Shown here: positions 5,040 through 62,100 of the stretch, one piece after another
Layout of the letters: every line of letters starts with the position of its first letter
Numbering within the stretch: position 1 is the first letter of the stretch
IMG/VR virus record: IMGVR_UViG_3300024581_003789
Span: 59,665-123,664 of that record
Length of the DNA stretch: 64,000 nt
Strand: one strand, 5' to 3'
From: a virus
Program-made: the position numbers and the translations under genes
The notes under the pieces: model-generated
Told to the model about the DNA's origin: nothing
The model's input: only the letters and a program-made list of their open reading frames with translations
Database searches by the model: none

Positions 5040-5498
5040 ATGGGACTAAGCTTTGAAGAAGTAAATATTTTAGGGGATTTAATCAACGACACGTTTGGTA
5101 AGGCTTCTACAACATCAGGTTATTACTCATCAGACAAAGAAGACGATGTAAATTACGGTGGTTATACAAGAGGAGGTACTGGCACGGCAACGTCAGTTGC
5201 AACAAAGGCTAGCATGCAAGGCGAAACTCTTTGTGTAACTTCTTTGTGCATTGTTAATTTAGGACCACACGGTCATCAACATCAAGTAATCAATCAAACT
5301 GAGGGCGAACTTAATCAACACATTAACTCTTTCATGTCTAATCTTAAAAAACAATTTAAAAAGAAAGAGCATGCTGGAAGAGCACTCAAGACAAAAGAAG
5401 ATAAAAATAAGCGCACAACAGACGTTCAAATGATTAATCATTATGCAGAGACGCGTCAGGCTTATATCTACCGAAGAGCGTTTTTTGAGATTGGTTAA
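5040..5498 (+). CDS. Hypothetical protein directly upstream of TerL
   Basis: AGGAG RBS; stop overlaps TerL start (TAATG). Confidence 0.7.
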   Translation: MGLSFEEVNILGDLINDTFGKASTTSGYYSSDKEDDVNYGGYTRGGTGTATSVATKASMQGETLCVTSLCIVNLGPHGHQHQVINQTEGELNQHINSFMSNLKKQFKKKEHAGRALKTKEDKNKRTTDVQMINHYAETRQAYIYRRAFFEIG

Positions 5499-7111
5499 TG
5501 GCTAGACTTACAAAAAAAGCACAAGTCGCAGAAATTATCAAGTGTGGAAAAGATCCTAACTACTTTTTTAAGAACTACGTAAAGATTCAGCATCCTGTTC
5601 GAGGTTTGATACCTTTCGAAATGTTTCCTTTTCAGGAAAACTGTGTTGATGATTTTAATGAACATAGATTCAATATTGTTCTTAAGTCAAGACAGCTAGG
5701 TCTTTCTACACTTGTAGCTGCATATTCAGTTTGGATGGCCATCTTTAAAAAAGAAAAGAACATCTTGATTATTGCGACAAAACTAAAAGTTGCACAGAAC
5801 TTTATCATCAAAGTTAAGACAATGATTAAGTCTCTACCCAAATGGCTTTTGTTGCCTGAAATTGTGTCCAATAATAAGCAAGAGATTATTTTTAGTCATG
5901 GGTCACAAATTAAAGCAATTCCAACCTCTGATGATGCTGGTCGTTCTGAAGCACTTTCTCTTTTGATTGTAGATGAGGCTGCTTTTGTTAGAAACTTTGA
6001 CACTATTTGGACAGGTATTTACCCCACAATTTCTACCGGTGGTCGAGTAATTATTTTATCTACTCCAAATGGTGTAGGTGGGCAATATCACAAGCTCTAT
6101 ACAGAAGCGGAAGCCGGCTTAAATGAATTTAATCCAATTAAAATTATGTGGGATGAACATCCAGAGCGTGGAGAGGAATGGTTTAAACAGGTCACAGCAA
6201 ACTTGTCAAAAAGGCAAATTGCACAAGAGTACCTATGTGATTTTGCCATCTCTGGAGAAACATATTTGGACACTGTTACCATCGAGTGGATGAGTAGTAT
6301 TGTTATGCCCCCTATGATGAGAGAAGGCCCAGACAACAACGTATGGATCTGGAAGCAGCCTCTTTCTGAAAACGAATACATAATATCAGCCGATGTGTCT
6401 AGAGGTGATGCTAAAGACTATTCAACATTTCATGTGATTGATGTTAACACGTCAGAGGTTGTTGCCGAGTACAAAGGTAAGATTCGGCCTGATAATTTTG
6501 CTGAATTGATCAACAAATACGGGTTAAAGTATAATAAGGCATTGGTTTGCCCAGAAAACAATAGTTACGGTTACGCAACAATTTTAAAATTGCAAGAGCT
6601 TAATTACCCTAGATTGTACTATCGCAAAAGAAAAGGAGCTTTCTTGGGTGGGTACGTTCCTCAGCAAACTCCAGACGTTGCAGGATTCAATACGAACGGC
6701 AAGACAAGAGGTACTATTTTAGCAAAACTAGAAGAAGTTTTAAGAAATAAGCAACTCATAGTATACTCTAGTAGGTTCTACGAGGAATTAAAAGTGTTTG
6801 CTGTTGGATTAGATGGGCGTGCTGCTGCTAAAAGAGGTTATAACGACGACTTGGTCATGAGTATGGCAATTGGTGCGTGGTTGTTTGATGCATCTTCAGA
6901 TTATAGCAAAAACTCTAAAGAGTTGAATGATGCAATGTTGAATGCGATGAAAAGAACAACAAACCCGTATGCAGATACTCCAGAAGCTGTTAATGCCCCA
7001 ATAAGTATGTATTCAGGCAATTCAAAAGACAATCGTTCCGGAAGAACTAATTTTTTTAATCAGAACGCAAAACAAAGACAAAATTTAAACGATAACAAAT
7101 GGTTATTATAG
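5498..7111 (+). CDS. terL: Terminase large subunit (T4 gp17-like)
   Basis: LKSRQLGLST (Walker A region), LLIVDEAAF (Walker B), ILSTPNG coupling motif, nuclease ISADVSRG and DDLVMS. Confidence 0.95.
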   Translation: MARLTKKAQVAEIIKCGKDPNYFFKNYVKIQHPVRGLIPFEMFPFQENCVDDFNEHRFNIVLKSRQLGLSTLVAAYSVWMAIFKKEKNILIIATKLKVAQNFIIKVKTMIKSLPKWLLLPEIVSNNKQEIIFSHGSQIKAIPTSDDAGRSEALSLLIVDEAAFVRNFDTIWTGIYPTISTGGRVIILSTPNGVGGQYHKLYTEAEAGLNEFNPIKIMWDEHPERGEEWFKQVTANLSKRQIAQEYLCDFAISGETYLDTVTIEWMSSIVMPPMMREGPDNNVWIWKQPLSENEYIISADVSRGDAKDYSTFHVIDVNTSEVVAEYKGKIRPDNFAELINKYGLKYNKALVCPENNSYGYATILKLQELNYPRLYYRKRKGAFLGGYVPQQTPDVAGFNTNGKTRGTILAKLEEVLRNKQLIVYSSRFYEELKVFAVGLDGRAAAKRGYNDDLVMSMAIGAWLFDASSDYSKNSKELNDAMLNAMKRTTNPYADTPEAVNAPISMYSGNSKDNRSGRTNFFNQNAKQRQNLNDNKWLL

Positions 7112-50231: not shown

Positions 50232-52730
50232 ATGTACGATTATCAAAAGGTTTATGAATCATCGCTCGAATATTTTGGAGGAGATGAATTAGCAGCTTCG
50301 GTCTTTGCAGGAAAATACGCATTGCAAGACGAAGAAGGAAATTATCTGGAGCTTACGCCAGATGATATGCACAAACGACTAGCAAAAGAATTTGCTCGCA
50401 TCGAAAAAAAATACGACAACCCAATGTCTGAAACAGAGATCTATAGTTTGTTTCAAGGTTTTCGTTTTATAGTTCCGCAAGGATCTCCTATGAGTGGGAT
50501 TGGAAATAATTCAAAAATTCAATCAATCTCTAACTGCTTTGTGATTGAGGCACCGGAGGACAGTTATGGTGGTATTTTAAGAGCAGATCAAGAGCAAGTT
50601 CAAATCATGAAGCGTCGTGGTGGTGTAGGGTTTGATGTTTCTACTATTCGCCCTAAAGGAATGTTTACGTCTAATGCAGCAAAAACTACTGACGGGATTG
50701 AGGTCTTTCTAGAAAGATTTTCTAATTCTTGCCGTGAAGTTGCACAAGGCGGTAGACGTGGTGCGCTAATGCTATCAATTTCTGTCCATCATCCTCAAGT
50801 TATGGACTTTATTAAAATCAAAAGAGACTTGACTAAAGTTACAGGTGCTAACATCTCTGTACGAGTAACCGATGAGTTTATGAATGCTGTAAAGCACGGA
50901 GATAGCTATCAACTACGATGGCCCGTACAAAGCATTACTGAGGGCGGCGGTGTTCCAGAAATAGAAGAATACGTCGACGCAAAAGAAGTTTGGAGCGAGT
51001 TGATCGAAGGTGCTCATGCATCGGCAGAGCCGGGTGTTCTTTTCTGGGATACTGCTACACGTATGACTCCGTCTGATGCATATTCAGATGTAGGCTTCGG
51101 TTCTGTTTCTACCAATCCGTGTGGTGAAATTATCCTTTCTCCGTACGATTCATGTCGACTTATGCTGATGAACCTTACGTCTTTCGTAGACAACGCATGG
51201 ACAGATGAAGCAAGTTTTGATTGGGGTAAGTTCAGAAACTACTCTCGTAAAGCACAACGTTTAATGGACGACATGATCGATCTAGAAATTGAGCAAATCG
51301 ATAAAATTCTTGCAAAAATTGATAGTGACCCTGAAGGAGATGCAACAAAATTACCAGAAAAACAGCTCTGGCTTAAGATTAAAGAGGTCGCGCAAAACGG
51401 TCGAAGAACTGGACTAGGAGTTACAGGTTTAGGTGATACTATTGCCATGTTAGGCCAAAGATACGGAGATAACGATTCAATCGAGACTGTGGAAGAAATC
51501 TACAAATGGTTATCTCTTGCTTCTTACGAGGAGTCTATCCAGCTTGCGAAAGAACGTGGGGCATTCCCAATCTTCGATGCATCCAAAGAAGAAGGCCACG
51601 AGTTTCTCGACAGAGTACTCAGTTCCCTAACAGAAGAAGTACAAGCTGACTATAGACAACATGGGAGACGAAACATTGCGAACACAACGACTGCACCTGC
51701 TGGTTCAGTTTCTTGTCTTACCCAAACTACGTCAGGTATCGAACCTGCCTTCATGTTATACTACAAGCGACGCAAGAAAGTACAAAACGGTGAGAAGGTA
51801 ATGTTCGTAGATGATCTTGGTGACGAATGGACAGAGTTTAACGTGTATCATCATGCTTTCAAACAATGGTTAGATAGTGACCATGGAACAACCGCCTCAG
51901 TCGATGACTTGGATCACGCAGTCGCTTTTAGCCCATATCACGGTGCTACCGCCAATGAAATTGATTGGCGTGCCAAAGTGAAGCTCCAATCAGTTGCGCA
52001 AAAGTGGATCTGTCATGCTATCTCGAACACTACGAATCTTCCAGCTGACATTGATGTAGAAACAGTAAAAGACATCTATATGCTTGGTTGGGAACTTGGC
52101 TGCAAGGGTGTAACCGTATATCGAGATGGAAGTCGTTCTGGTGTATTGGTTTCAACTGATGATAAAAAAGAACCGGAAAATACTATTACAGAAAGAGACG
52201 CACCAAAAAGACCTGAAGAATTGGAGTGTGACATCTATCACACATCAATTAAAGGGCAGAAGTGGGTCGTTTTAGTAGGACTTCTTAATGGTAAACCATA
52301 CGAGGTTATAGGTGGCGAGGCTGATCAAATAGAGATCCCTACTAAGTACAGACATGGTAAGCTTCAAAAAAGAGTATTTAAGACAAAGAATAGCAAATAT
52401 GATCTAACAGTGGGTACAGGTGACGACACCCTTCATGTAAGAGATGTAGTTTCAGTCTTTGACAACCCAAATCATGCAGGTTATACACGGGTTATTTCCA
52501 CTTCTTTACGTCATGGTGTACCTGTTCAATACTTAGTTGAGCAAATGCAAAAAGACAAAGAAATGGACATGTTTAGCTTTTCGAAAGTTATTTCCCGTTG
52601 TCTTAAAAACTACATTGTTGACGGTACAGAAGTTGCCAAGACATGCCCAGAATGCGGTGCTGAAGGTAGCTTAGTTTATCAGGAGGGCTGCGTAACATGC
52701 AAAAGCTGTGGAAGTGGAAAATGTGGCTAA
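50232..52730 (+). CDS. nrdJ: Class II (adenosylcobalamin-dependent) ribonucleotide reductase
   Basis: SNCF, TNPCGEI, GLGVTGL, TAPAG, GCKGVTVYRDGSR; no ATP cone; C-terminal Cys cluster CPEC...CVTCKSC..KC. Confidence 0.9.
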   Translation: MYDYQKVYESSLEYFGGDELAASVFAGKYALQDEEGNYLELTPDDMHKRLAKEFARIEKKYDNPMSETEIYSLFQGFRFIVPQGSPMSGIGNNSKIQSISNCFVIEAPEDSYGGILRADQEQVQIMKRRGGVGFDVSTIRPKGMFTSNAAKTTDGIEVFLERFSNSCREVAQGGRRGALMLSISVHHPQVMDFIKIKRDLTKVTGANISVRVTDEFMNAVKHGDSYQLRWPVQSITEGGGVPEIEEYVDAKEVWSELIEGAHASAEPGVLFWDTATRMTPSDAYSDVGFGSVSTNPCGEIILSPYDSCRLMLMNLTSFVDNAWTDEASFDWGKFRNYSRKAQRLMDDMIDLEIEQIDKILAKIDSDPEGDATKLPEKQLWLKIKEVAQNGRRTGLGVTGLGDTIAMLGQRYGDNDSIETVEEIYKWLSLASYEESIQLAKERGAFPIFDASKEEGHEFLDRVLSSLTEEVQADYRQHGRRNIANTTTAPAGSVSCLTQTTSGIEPAFMLYYKRRKKVQNGEKVMFVDDLGDEWTEFNVYHHAFKQWLDSDHGTTASVDDLDHAVAFSPYHGATANEIDWRAKVKLQSVAQKWICHAISNTTNLPADIDVETVKDIYMLGWELGCKGVTVYRDGSRSGVLVSTDDKKEPENTITERDAPKRPEELECDIYHTSIKGQKWVVLVGLLNGKPYEVIGGEADQIEIPTKYRHGKLQKRVFKTKNSKYDLTVGTGDDTLHVRDVVSVFDNPNHAGYTRVISTSLRHGVPVQYLVEQMQKDKEMDMFSFSKVISRCLKNYIVDGTEVAKTCPECGAEGSLVYQEGCVTCKSCGSGKCG

Positions 52731-52774
52731 ATACATGCCCTTGCTGCGGATGTGATCCTTGTGATTGCCACTAG
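52721..52774 (+). CDS. Candidate 17-aa Cys-rich micropeptide MWLNTCPCCGCDPCDCH
   Basis: ATG overlaps the nrdJ end; GC-rich relative to other intergenic DNA; stop lies just before the terminator. Confidence 0.55.
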   Translation: MWLNTCPCCGCDPCDCH

Positions 52775-52788
52775 CTCAATATTATATT

Positions 52789-52815
52789 AAAAGAGAGTGA
52801 AAACTCTCTTTTTTT
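52789..52815 (+). terminator. Rho-independent terminator (GAAA tetraloop) closing the replication operon
   Basis: AAAAGAGAGT-GAAA-ACTCTCTTTT followed by Ts. Confidence 0.85.
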
Positions 52816-52857
52816 GTTATAGTTAGCTATGTAATAAAATTACCTACGAGGAAGATT

Positions 52858-53724
52858 ATGAAGATTAAAAAGAGAGATTTACTAGCTCTTGTAGAATCCT
52901 ATTTAAAAGAGCAAGCATTAGATTTTAAACTATCAACCAGCGATAAAAGACCGTCATCAGAATCTGAAATAAAAACTGCTATAAATGATTTGGCTTATTT
53001 TTATGACAGAGCAAAAGAATTAAAAGAGCTTCTAAGTAATCAAATTTCAAGCTTAGAATCAAAATTTGGTGATATACAATCAATGACATTAGAAAATGTT
53101 ATGCCAATTAAATCTATTCTTTCTAGTCTCCCGGGTACAGAATCAATGATATCTAAGATAGATGCAGCATTAGATTTTATGAAAAAAATAGACACTGCCA
53201 TTTCAGATCTAGAAGATTTATTCGCCTCACCCATTGATTCTAAAAAATGGGCAGAGGAAACTGTGAAAAAATACATGGTTGACCCATCGAAATTTACAAA
53301 TCAGCCAGCGGCATCTAAAGCACTAAACTCAGCTCGTGCTTTAGGAGAATTGCTTGGATTGGTTGTTGATTCTTTCAAGGGAATGATAAAAATTTTCGAC
53401 ATGTCAAAAATACACAATCCAAATACAGACACAGAAGAATTTAATGCTTTAAAGTTTTTATTTAATGTATTGATTTTGTTTCCTAAGGCGATATTTGATG
53501 TTGACATGCAAAGTCAATTTTTAGATGAAAATATTAGTTTTCTAAAAGAGACATTTCCAAACGCAAGAAATATTCAGACTTTAGTTCAATTTATGGAAAA
53601 ATTATTAGAAGCAAACCAATCGTTGGAATCACTGGGTAATTCTTTAACCAGTATTAGTTTAACAAGCGCTAGAGATGCTAAAACGCAAGAAAGATTTAAC
53701 GACGACTACGAAGCCGGATTCTAA
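52858..53724 (+). CDS. Hypothetical helical protein, probable internal head protein
   Basis: GAGGA RBS; ATAGTTA upstream; MKIKKRDLLALVESYLKE N-terminus. Confidence 0.72.
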   Translation: MKIKKRDLLALVESYLKEQALDFKLSTSDKRPSSESEIKTAINDLAYFYDRAKELKELLSNQISSLESKFGDIQSMTLENVMPIKSILSSLPGTESMISKIDAALDFMKKIDTAISDLEDLFASPIDSKKWAEETVKKYMVDPSKFTNQPAASKALNSARALGELLGLVVDSFKGMIKIFDMSKIHNPNTDTEEFNALKFLFNVLILFPKAIFDVDMQSQFLDENISFLKETFPNARNIQTLVQFMEKLLEANQSLESLGNSLTSISLTSARDAKTQERFNDDYEAGF

Positions 53725-59163: not shown

Positions 59164-62100
59164 ATGGCGGGAAAAACAAATATAACAGCTACGTATTTTG
59201 CTCAGAAAAAACTTTTAGGCAAAGCAAACACTTCGATATTGAAAAAAGATTATGAAGAATCAATATCGACAAACATACAAACCAATGCTAGTATTATTTT
59301 TGGCGAGACTGTCACAGACAATCCAACACAAACACTTTATTGGAACGATAGTATTGTTGAGTATGTTGAATTTGAATTAGATGCAGTTGCCGGTACCGCC
59401 TATCAGGCAACTCCTGATACGGGAGGGGAAGGAACTCAAGATTCTGGTACACACGCCTATAGGCTTAAGTTTCCTACAGGTTATGCAGCAGCGACATCTT
59501 CCGGGAAGAGTTTCCAAGATGGTGAGTATATCCACGAATATTTAGGTAGAGCACAGTTAGTACCTACATTTTATTCTGAACTCGTCCCCAACCCCTACAA
59601 TATCAAACTGTATGATGGGAATGGTGTACAAATACCTTTAGCAGATGAAGTTGACTGGAGTATCGATTACTACAATGGCATACTTTTCTTACAGGACTAC
59701 GATGCTAATAAGATTCCAGCGACTGCTCGAGCATTTATTTATATTGGCGACTATTTAGATGACGTTCTTTCATCTGCAGCGTCTTCTGGAGATCTAAACT
59801 ACGTTCAAAGTACTGCATCAGGTTATTTAAGCGCAACCGGATCAATGTCTTTTTCAGGAGGCGAAGGTTACAATTTCAATACTAGCGATGTAGGTAGTGA
59901 TACATTCTTCTTCGTAAGCGGATCTTTAGATGGACAAAATAAGTCCGTTTTCGGGGGTGATGTTGTCGTAAGTGGTAGTTTTTCACTATCTAGTAATAGT
60001 TTAGGGACTAACGATCAAGAAATAAGACACCAATTTATCGATCAGGAATATTCTGGAAGTTATATTACCTCTATAGACGGACAATTACTAAACAAGTCTC
60101 TTAAATCCCCTGTTTATGCAAAGTCAAGTGATATCAACTCAGATCTTTTTAATGTTGTAAGAATGAGTTTGTTTACAAAAGAACAAGCGTCTTTTGAATC
60201 TCTTCTTCAAAATACAAACGTTTTTAAAATAGAGTCATATGTTGAAGGGCCTCCAGATTCTAGCGGTAACCCAACTTTTACAAAGGAGCTCGGATATTTT
60301 AACTTTTCATTTGATAAAGATATCGGCTACTTAAAGCTAGTTACAGACCCGAATACTGGTGAAGATTATTATGAAAACGACAATGTCGACAATCAAAATG
60401 ATGCAGAGTATTTTTTTGATACGCAAAACGAAGAAGATGTGTCAACTTTCCAGAGAGTTCGAACAGACAATGGCAACATAGAATCAAAGTATATTTCTTC
60501 TCTAGCAGCAGATGTTAAGTCAAACTTTAATCACGGTTTTAAATACATAATTCAAGAATATGATGTTAATGATAAAATAGCAAATGACTATATGTCTGTG
60601 ACGTCAACTACAGGAATCTCTCTTGACATAACATACACGCCAAATTCCGATTCTGGCGTTGAAGAAATAACCGGTCTTAAGCTGATCGACAGCAATTCTG
60701 CGACTATTGGAAATTATGATTTCTCTTCCGACGTTAATATCCAAAACGAACCGTTAGATATTACGAAAAAAGTATTAAATGACATCAATGATAGATCATC
60801 TGTTGATAGCTACAGGAGTAGCATTGTAAGTAGTGGAGTGTCTGTCCCGGGTACAGGAAAGATAATAAATAGATATCCGATACTTTTTTCTAGATACCTA
60901 AACGAAGGAACACCTGAGTATATTAAGATAGGAACAAAAGTTTCTGTTAATAGATGGGAATCTTTAAAGTCTAAATATTCAACTTTTGATATAGATAGTT
61001 CACTTATTAATGGTGTTTTTAAACCAACAAGTGCATCAAATTTTGCCCCGCTGATTAATGCAACAACAGCTTTTGGCTGCTTAAAAACTTTTATATACGC
61101 CTTCAATTATGCGGTAACTAAATCTTCAGCAACCACAAAGCCTGCTGCAATTAACTCAACAAACTATCCAGCACTTAACTGGACTCTGTATAATGATATC
61201 AATAATACGAATTCAAATTCAGGAATATATGAATTAAGGCTTTTATTTCTTCCTTTTATTAAAAAATTTACTGATGACTTATATGATATATGCAATACTG
61301 CCTTAAGTGATCCTAACTATAGCGCTTTCTTTGGTTATACAGAAACAGTAAAGAATTTTTCGAACAATACACTAAGCTCAACAGCTTCCGTGTCAATTGA
61401 AGAAGTTATAACAAACAAATTTTTGGCGGAGATTGGTTACAATCTCAATAAAAAAGTCAACGGCGACAGAGGTGTTTATACCTTAGCAAAAGAGTATGAT
61501 GAGTATTTGTATTACACGTCTTTGCATTTTAATAGCGTAGGAGATCGATCTGAAAGAGATTTTGTACAAGCTACAAATAGAGGTCAATATGCATCAGGCG
61601 CAACCACAACACTAGCAGATTACGAAAATTCATCTCTTAACGTAGAATCTTTGTTGAAAAATAGATACACATTGATGACTGCGTTCAAGCCGGCCTTGAT
61701 TGCTAATGGTACTAGCTTGTTTTTAGGACCGGTCTCAATATCAAAACTCTATGGGCAGTCACCAATACAAGTCAACACAGAATTTGTTTTTGGTAACGAG
61801 CAGCCTGTCTTAGATGATTTTGGGAACGTTTTAACTGGAAGTGATGGAAACATTCTTACCTCAGCATCACACCAATTAGTAGTTGGTAGTAAAGGATTTG
61901 AAGGTGATTTGCAAGTAACAGGATCCGTTGATATTACGGGTTTTGGCCGAGGCGACGGAATGAGAATAAACATGGGAAGTCTAGTCATGACTTCAGATCT
62001 AGATGGATCAAACATGCCTCAATTCCAAATGATCAATTCAAATGCCAATGAATACGAAAGACCCCAGATTCTTTTATCTAATAATCTTTCTTCTTTTGTC

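Follow-up and report, generated by a model that had tools for sequence, protein, structure and literature searches.

Metallothioneins are very small cysteine-rich metal peptides that hold their metals in thiolate clusters, those of the bacterial SmtA type being about 50 aa long. Other short cysteine arrays that bind metals are the rubredoxin-type zinc knuckles and zinc ribbons, with the signature C-P-x-C-G, and the Cu(I)-sensing cysteine clusters, such as the C-x-C-x4-C-x-C tail of CopY and the repeats of Mac1 and Ace1. We describe here a 17-codon open reading frame (ORF) that encodes a cysteine-rich micropeptide and begins within the last codons of nrdJ, the gene for a class II (B12-dependent) ribonucleotide reductase (RNR), in a 64,000-nucleotide stretch of viral DNA (the window; positions 59,665 to 123,664 of IMG/VR record IMGVR_UViG_3300024581_003789). 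Judged by the pattern of substitutions among its relatives, this ORF is a real gene and its peptide sequence is under purifying selection. We favour, with moderate confidence, the reading that it encodes an accessory, probably metal-binding micropeptide that is translated in step with NrdJ from a gene-insertion hot spot. NrdJ proteins of the type found here carry a six-cysteine C-terminal cysteine-rich domain (CRD), for which it is proposed that four cysteines hold zinc and the other two pass electrons on (Loderer et al. 2017, PMC5704485). Both thioredoxins and glutaredoxin failed in vitro as reductants of CRD-type NrdJ, whose native reductant is not known (PMC5704485).

The micro-ORF and its setting at the end of nrdJ

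The features of the locus are as follows.

50232..52730, + strand: nrdJ, class II (B12-dependent) RNR, 832 aa (Pfam Ribonuc_red_lgC, 6.6e-91; also the N-terminal domain; weak TSCPD match)
52644..52727, + strand: six-cysteine tail of NrdJ, C-x2-C-x11-C-x2-C-x2-C-x4-C, complete without the micropeptide (from the translation; kept to the last residue in 80/80 relatives; fits the CRD of Loderer et al. 2017, PMC5704485)
52681..52687, + strand: AGGAGGG in the Q-E-G codons of nrdJ, a possible Shine-Dalgarno sequence for the 25-codon form, 9 nt 5' of ATG 52697 (YQEGC codons common to all relatives; putative ribosome-binding site)
52697..52774, + strand: longest ATG-started micro-ORF, 25 codons, its 8 additional N-terminal codons overlapping nrdJ (start not universal among relatives)
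52721..52774, + strand: 17-codon micro-gene MWLNTCPCCGCDPCDCH in the -1 frame of nrdJ, with the stop codon TAG at 52772-52774 and the start 7 nt 5' of the first base of the nrdJ stop
52736..52771, + strand: conserved core CPCCGCDPCDCH, with five family-invariant cysteines, one additional cysteine and a histidine (pN/pS, family alignment A1, profile matches)
52789..52819, + strand: intrinsic terminator, a hairpin at 52789-52812 followed by a T-run (10-pair stem and T tail; minimum free energy fold), predicted to end the nrdJ-micropeptide transcription unit

The ATG at 52721-52723 is composed of the last A of an AAA lysine codon and the TG of a TGT cysteine codon of nrdJ, whose product ends in CKSCGSGKCG. 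Six of the 17 residues of the peptide are cysteines, and its core is spelled C-P-C-C-G-C-D-P-C-D-C-H. An earlier note on this DNA, made from its letters alone, had reported a 17-aa frame with six cysteines and one histidine whose ATG overlaps the last nrdJ codons, a GGAAG 6 nt upstream of that ATG, a GC-rich stretch past the nrdJ stop, a stop codon just ahead of the terminator, and a C-terminus of NrdJ that is itself a cysteine cluster. All of this is borne out. The frame is exact in the sequence and GGAAG lies at 52710-52714; G+C is 50% at 52731-52774 and 56% in the 12-codon core, as against 20–30% in seven other intergenic spacers and 36% in the window as a whole; the end of the micro-ORF and the terminator are separated by 14 nt; and the tail of NrdJ holds six cysteines. 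The density of cysteine codons is within chance, nine other stop-free 12-residue segments with at least five cysteines being present in the six-frame translation of the 134-kb record. What places the micro-ORF above chance is its conservation in relatives under purifying selection, not its cysteine density alone.

The micropeptide resembles a metallothionein in that it is tiny and about 35% cysteine, in the arrangements C-x-C, C-C and C-x-x-C. It differs in its length of 17 aa, in its invariant Asp-Pro and Asp, and in the use of the same core as a terminal tag on DNA-binding proteins (see below), which is unlike metallothioneins; a comparison of the micropeptide family with Pfam and NCBIfam gave no match at E <= 1, the described metallothioneins included. 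Its first knuckle, C-P-C-C-G, and its second, C-D-P-C, recall zinc knuckles, but C-P-C-C and C-D-P-C are one residue apart with no beta-hairpin between them, so that a classical zinc ribbon cannot form, and there is no detectable homology. The placing of C-x-C and C-x2-C clusters at the ends of small DNA-binding proteins recalls metal-sensing repressors. With the CRD of NrdJ the micropeptide has in common that it is a six-cysteine array linked to NrdJ, whereas the CRD lies within the NrdJ chain and the micropeptide is a separate -1-frame ORF with much tighter cysteine spacing that is dispensable in relatives; the spacing pattern of the CRD is that of the window NrdJ's own tail and not that of the micropeptide. 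A tiny cysteine-rich, probably metal-binding peptide coupled to the preceding gene is a known kind of product, although this sequence family and its modular use by phages are undescribed in the sources searched.

Conservation and purifying selection

The product of nrdJ matches phage vitamin-B12-dependent RNRs in tblastn searches. A DNA search of the window region against 50,697 GenBank phage records gave no match, and the closest deposited NrdJ is less than 48% identical; relatives were therefore drawn from IMG/VR. The set comprises 80 loci (71 of them distinct) whose NrdJ proteins are 63–88% identical to that of the window. At the nrdJ stop, and in the same relative frame, the peptide CPCCxCDPCDCH is present in 11 distinct relatives besides the window (NrdJ 70–88% identical). 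Ten of these read CPCC[G/E/D/N]CD[P/S]CDCH or CSCFECDPCDCH, and the locus L043 has CPVCKCDPCDCD.

Read in the frame of the peptide, the 12-codon core has a ratio of nonsynonymous to synonymous differences (pN/pS) of 0.075, and pS approaches saturation; the two remaining frames give 2.7 and 1.3. Third codon positions are variable in 12/12 codons, and only 8 of the first or second positions vary. Synonymous switches are seen in the codons for Cys (TGT/TGC), Pro (CCG/CCA/CCT), Asp (GAT/GAC) and His (CAT/CAC). The stretch that links the nrdJ stop to the first cysteine is variable in both length and sequence. The earlier note had suggested a motif search behind nrdJ in related phages and a check for synonymous-biased conservation; both came out in favour of its unannotated cysteine-rich micropeptide with a start overlapping the nrdJ stop, which is coding by comparative evidence, the frame and the cysteine pattern being kept in the 11 distinct loci. 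Since purifying selection on the peptide sequence implies translation, the micro-ORF is very probably a real translated gene. Gene finders skip ORFs this short, and it is the comparative evidence that reveals strong protein-level selection on a gene of 17 codons.

An RNA element was ruled out as the cause of conservation: the consensus fold from RNAalifold has an energy of only -2.7 kcal/mol, covariation is negligible, and an Rfam scan of the region gave no match. The minimum free energy fold of the single sequence puts a hairpin over the start codon of the micro-ORF, but this hairpin is not kept in the relatives. A homologue search with a 40-aa stop-to-stop query returned no candidate.

Start site and probable coupling to nrdJ

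A start codon close to the stop of the upstream gene is the classical layout for termination-reinitiation coupling. In 11/11 peptide-bearing relatives, L018 and L043 included, an ATG or GTG lies between -9 and +6 nt relative to the nrdJ stop, and co-translation with NrdJ is the natural reading because the micropeptide start overlaps the nrdJ stop. Nearly all of the 71 distinct relatives have a -1-frame ATG or GTG as an automatic consequence of the K-C dipeptide (AAR TGY) at the NrdJ terminus. Upstream of the start, the -1 frame runs without a stop for at least 17 codons in 9/11 peptide-bearing loci and closed in L018 and L043, where stops in that frame stand directly before the locus's own GTG or ATG and the peptide is still kept. 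Because the frame is closed in these two loci, the start at ATG 52697 is not universal.

Distribution among relatives and a variable slot behind nrdJ

All of the relatives share the same six-cysteine NrdJ tail. In a tree of NrdJ the peptide is found in 11/17 rows of a single clade (SH-aLRT 94), its one occurrence elsewhere being L043; the rows were scored by regular expression, and L009 and L010 are marked 'no' although they carry a CSCFE variant. The peptide is absent from about 59 of the 71 distinct relatives with the same six-cysteine CRD. In the nearest relative, L001 (88% NrdJ identity), the nrdJ stop leads straight to the terminator, and there is no copy elsewhere on its 236-kb contig. 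The absence from relatives that have the same NrdJ tail argues that the peptide is dispensable for the enzyme, and our best reading of the distribution is that it is an accessory gene, apparently with a history of repeated gain or loss, rather than a partner that the reductase requires. At two further loci, L025 and L026, the -1 frame just past the nrdJ stop ends in VWVVCWFCDYDLGN before its stop codon, which may be the decayed remnant of a cysteine peptide.

The junction between nrdJ and the ClpP-like gene is a variable slot. It holds nothing at most loci, and otherwise the peptide, a gene of about 290 aa, or a glutamine synthetase (L048). A terminator is found at the same position among the relatives, though the terminator sequences differ. 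In L037 the nrdJ stop is overlapped by the gene for a 90-aa ferredoxin with a single cluster (5489-5758; Fer4_13, 4.7e-15), which is a candidate electron donor for a CRD-type NrdJ. IscU (NifU_N, E ~1e-52) directly follows nrdJ at L064:5475-5897, L074:5506-6471 and L076:5503-6473, and in the latter two it is followed by genes of the NifU-C type (Nfu) and the IscA/HesB type, giving a compact phage iron-sulphur (Fe-S) assembly cassette coupled to nrdJ. A further case is L192, a 194-kb viral contig, in which a 13-codon ORF encoding MCGCGCGCKCGCK (489-527, - strand), with its own AAGGAGGG site, stands directly after a monomeric-type class II RNR and before a terminator. The RNR-barrel gene of L192 ends in CYGASCEVT and is remotely similar to the window NrdJ, with local matches around the active site. 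As in the window, the cysteine-rich micro-ORF comes immediately after nrdJ and before a terminator; it differs in its unrelated Cys-Gly repeats, its own strong Shine-Dalgarno sequence and the lack of overlap with the RNR gene. The recurrence of cysteine or Fe-S genes behind phage nrdJ keeps alive the possibility of a functional link to NrdJ.

A cysteine mini-domain shared with other phage proteins

A degenerate codon scan of IMG/VR for C-D-P-C-D-C-H, a pattern that does not include the two upstream cysteines, gave 110 loci; in an alignment of 51 sequences, one of those two cysteines is conserved throughout (100%) and the other in more than 90%. The family core is C-x2-C-x-C-D-P-C-D-C, usually followed by H, G or D (the H form usually then by G). 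The window peptide has this core, and the corresponding columns of alignment A1 are invariant or more than 90% conserved. With G and D variants found in place of the histidine, the true invariants are the five cysteines, the Asp-Pro and the second Asp. A profile made from the motif alignment was compared with 1.84 billion cluster representatives (E <= 1e-3) and matched 41 protein clusters, all of 29–162 aa and none of NrdJ length.

The carriers are small proteins (less than about 165 aa) of viral contigs, with the motif at a chain end or alone. It is found at the extreme N-terminus of ribbon-helix-helix (RHH) proteins of about 65 aa (Pfam RHH_1 above cut-off), at the N-terminus of proteins of about 85 aa with an AbrB-like sequence pattern (a pattern recognised by reading; no Pfam match), and at the C-terminus of small proteins ending in CDPCDCHWGNY, including Smr-like ones (the Smr match being weak). 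It also occurs in in-frame helix-turn-helix (HTH) fusions and adjoining single membrane helices. Free-standing motif ORFs are 19–31 aa long, and stand-alone copies overlap the 3' end of a ClpS-like gene (L099) or come after small-terminase-like genes (L127, L143). To judge from these carriers, C-x2-C-x-C-D-P-C-D-C is a portable module, mainly of uncultured, mostly marine-type phages. Scans of about 40 motif proteins against Pfam, PHROGs and NCBIfam identified the fused domains only (RHH_1, weak Smr), the matches to phrog_21897 and phrog_27696 being weak and non-significant, and no paper containing the string 'CDPCDC' was found in the searchable literature. The outcome is a family of 12-residue cysteine modules, with members in 41 protein clusters and in over 100 viral contigs, that has no counterpart in Pfam, PHROGs, NCBIfam or the PDB and no mention in the searchable literature.

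The exact motif with its histidine is absent from 185,579 prokaryote species genomes. The core without the histidine is found at 27 places in these genomes, mostly inside other poly-cysteine repeats made of C-D-P-C units, either in tiny unannotated ORFs of metagenome-assembled genomes (MAGs) or in DUF1326 proteins of Ktedonobacteria; one marine MAG has a phage-type copy ending in CDPCDCGWGNY. The prokaryote micro-ORFs are like the phage family in their tiny size and in the core C-x2-C-x-C-D-P-C-D-C, but they are set in longer C-x-P-C or C-x-C repeats and have no common conserved flanks. These copies may be convergent, as low-complexity sequence. Poly-cysteine ORFs of 20–35 aa with C-D-P-C repeats (e.g. 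MSKCDNLNCQCDPCECDPCDC) were seen at L193:2332-2394, L205:3549-3611, L210:7120-7179, L209:3522-3623 and L219:890-994, in MAGs of Chloroflexota, Dehalococcoidia and Bathyarchaeia and in single-cell genomes of marine Bacteroidetes. Neither Pfam nor NCBIfam has a family for them, and they may be mini-metallothioneins of cellular organisms. In the Ktedonobacteria DUF1326 proteins (L195:6118-6675 and L198:1026-1568; also L200 and L201), the core forms part of an N-terminal GARGCSxCTCDPCDCNPCxCGD cluster.

One further arrangement was observed among the viral loci. At L111:6945-7268 (- strand) an ORF with the cysteine motif starts just 5' of a conserved Cro/C1-like HTH gene beside the large terminase, and the same arrangement is seen in L084, L097, L121, L133, L165, L169, L185 and L187. 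The motif ORF stays open for about 85 codons further, in a +1-shifted frame over the HTH gene, which could reflect an overprinted gene, a programmed shift or chance. On shuffling of synonymous codons about 1–2% of such frames are stop-free per sequence; the observed frames have one or two stops near the end, and 3/9 related sequences were without a result. The database protein P0005 has the motif and a similar HTH in one frame.

Alternative explanations

That the micro-ORF is a chance open frame and not a gene is extremely improbable: it is very short, and nine other off-frame segments hold at least five cysteines in 12 residues, but the strongly synonymous-biased substitutions across 11 loci effectively refute this explanation, and over 100 other viral contigs contain the motif again, cysteines beyond the search pattern being conserved there too. 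The earlier note had also raised a frameshifted extension of NrdJ, in which a -1 slip on A-AAA (GGA AAA) near the end of nrdJ would join the cysteine core to the enzyme. An A_AAR tetranucleotide is indeed present at the Lys codon in 9/11 peptide-bearing loci and in a minority of the other relatives, and those nine loci are the ones whose -1 frame has no stop in the 17 or more codons upstream. Shared ancestry confounds this enrichment, however, and there is neither a canonical X_XXY_YYZ slippery heptamer nor a conserved stimulatory structure downstream. In L018 and L043 stops in the -1 frame precede the peptide start, yet the peptide stays under selection; NrdJ stops at the same residue, with KCG or KCS, in all relatives; and none of the motif proteins among the cluster representatives has the length of a NrdJ fusion. 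We regard a transframe product as very unlikely, and rejected the locus as a member of the programmed -1 frameshift class, with A_AAR only, in 9/11 loci, a frame closed at two of them and no conserved structure. Highly improbable as well is a cysteine-sensing leader peptide, in which stalling of ribosomes at the six Cys codons would govern read-through of the terminator at 52789. Such a device fits a short, Cys-codon-rich ORF that ends 14 nt before an intrinsic terminator, but Asp, Pro and His are as strictly conserved as Cys, no alternative pairing is conserved, the motif is elsewhere a domain of larger proteins, and both the terminators and the downstream genes vary among relatives, the latter being head-module genes and not genes of sulphur metabolism. 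The class of amino-acid-sensing leaders was rejected, there being no terminator/antiterminator pairing and no downstream operon for that amino acid. A precursor of a ribosomally synthesised and post-translationally modified peptide was likewise rejected: there is no modifying enzyme (radical SAM, cyclodehydratase, LanM etc.) nearby, the locus is flanked by genes for replication and for the head, and on other contigs the motif lies at the N-terminus of DNA-binding proteins.

One claim of the earlier note, that the peptide serves the reductase, is not supported. As a dedicated helper it would load or hold the zinc of the six-cysteine C-terminal domain, or act as a thiol or metal-cluster relay of electrons to the terminal cysteine pair. 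The maintenance of the nrdJ stop-start overlap over 11 diverged loci speaks for this, as do the ferredoxin (L037) and the IscU genes, with or without Nfu and IscA (L064, L074, L076), that occupy the coupled slot elsewhere, the sequence-unrelated 13-aa cysteine peptide after the remote monomeric-type RNR of L192, and the failure of thioredoxins and glutaredoxin to reduce an enzyme whose native electron donor is not known (PMC5704485). A survey of five partial genomes for thioredoxins and glutaredoxins found one thioredoxin only. Yet the closest relative and most of the others do without the peptide despite having the same CRD, the slot also houses glutamine synthetase and further unrelated genes, the same motif is found in many phage proteins unrelated to RNR (fused to RHH, AbrB-like, HTH and Smr proteins) and in micro-ORFs behind other genes (ClpS-like and terminase), and there is no evident route for the catalytic re-reduction of a 17-aa peptide. 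A dedicated helper is possible but, we think, unlikely. Doubtful, too, and held with little confidence, is the broader proposal that the micropeptide, the ferredoxin, IscU and the L192 poly-cysteine peptide are all phage-supplied redox or metal partners of the cysteine-rich tail of class II RNRs; if it were true it would give a lead to the physiological electron or zinc donor of CRD-type NrdJ, and the peptide, the L192 cysteine peptide, the ferredoxin and IscU are a cheap-to-test candidate set for the reductant or zinc donor of CRD-type class II RNRs. The peptide could also be a metal-stabilised interaction or sensor module with a regulatory or host-takeover role, imitating the N-terminal module of the phage's small DNA-binding regulators, competing with it, or binding to a target in the host. 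Small DNA-binding proteins of three kinds (RHH_1, AbrB-like and HTH) have the motif at their extreme N-terminus, and Smr-like proteins have it at the C-terminus, a terminal placing typical of a sensing or oligomerisation tag, and its D-P and D match the cysteines in invariance. Against such a role, there is no motif-bearing regulator in the 134-kb part of the genome that the record covers (46% complete) and no known partner, and we consider it rather improbable.

A probable metal-binding accessory peptide

The reading that we prefer, an accessory micropeptide made in step with NrdJ, can be set out as follows. Ribosomes would reach the micro-ORF by its stop-start overlap with nrdJ, starting at 52721 and possibly also at 52697, either through reinitiation by terminating ribosomes or through initiation at the Shine-Dalgarno-like purine runs in the last nrdJ codons. 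The peptide would be made whenever NrdJ is made, transcription then stopping at the 52789 hairpin. The five invariant thiols, together with the additional cysteine and the histidine, may fold the 12-residue core around one or more soft metal ions, Zn2+ or Cu+ (a small Fe-S cluster being less likely), and the product would be a miniature metal-binding knuckle or a metallothionein-like peptide. The gene would have been inserted into the variable slot that separates nrdJ from the head-protease module. Chemically, a metal or redox function is the most plausible one for such a peptide, and by its composition and by analogy with knuckles, metallothioneins and Cu(I)-sensing cysteine tails we think it fairly probable that it binds metal. 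If the module does so, it would be among the smallest natural metal-binding domains, used by phages both alone and as a tag on regulators; if it is only a small metal buffer, it would be a modest addition to the annotation of phage small proteins.

Several points weigh against this reading. The sums behind the pN/pS values use pairs of related sequences that are not independent, and the Shine-Dalgarno-like sequence upstream of ATG 52721 is weak. The replacement of the histidine by G or D in many family members makes the ligand set uncertain. AlphaFold2, run metal-free on a 30-column motif alignment, gave a pLDDT of 64 and a pTM of 0.21, and thus no structural support, and a PDB sequence search with the motif profile found nothing at E <= 10. 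The fusions to DNA-binding domains are easier to reconcile with a sensor or interaction module than with a metal buffer. Finally, a cysteine micro-gene behind nrdJ is seen twice independently, in the window family and as MCGCGCGCKCGCK on L192, which speaks against a pure coincidence of position.

Genomic setting

The virus record is 134 kb long, is estimated to be 46% complete and has a G+C content of 35.5%. Contigs of the relatives reach 202–236 kb at 70–77% completeness, from which we infer a phage genome of roughly 300 kb. NrdJ is the last product of a replication operon in the order gp32-like protein, RecA/UvsX-like protein, 5'-3' exonuclease, DnaB-like helicase and NrdJ. On the 3' side of the terminator a 288-aa gene is followed by the genes for a ClpP-like protease and an M15 peptidase. 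The 288-aa gene (window 52858-53724; product beginning MKIKKRDLL), which lies between the terminator and the ClpP-like gene, gives only weak, coiled-coil-like Pfam matches; absent from most relatives, it has homologous-looking genes at the same place in L017, L022 and L043.

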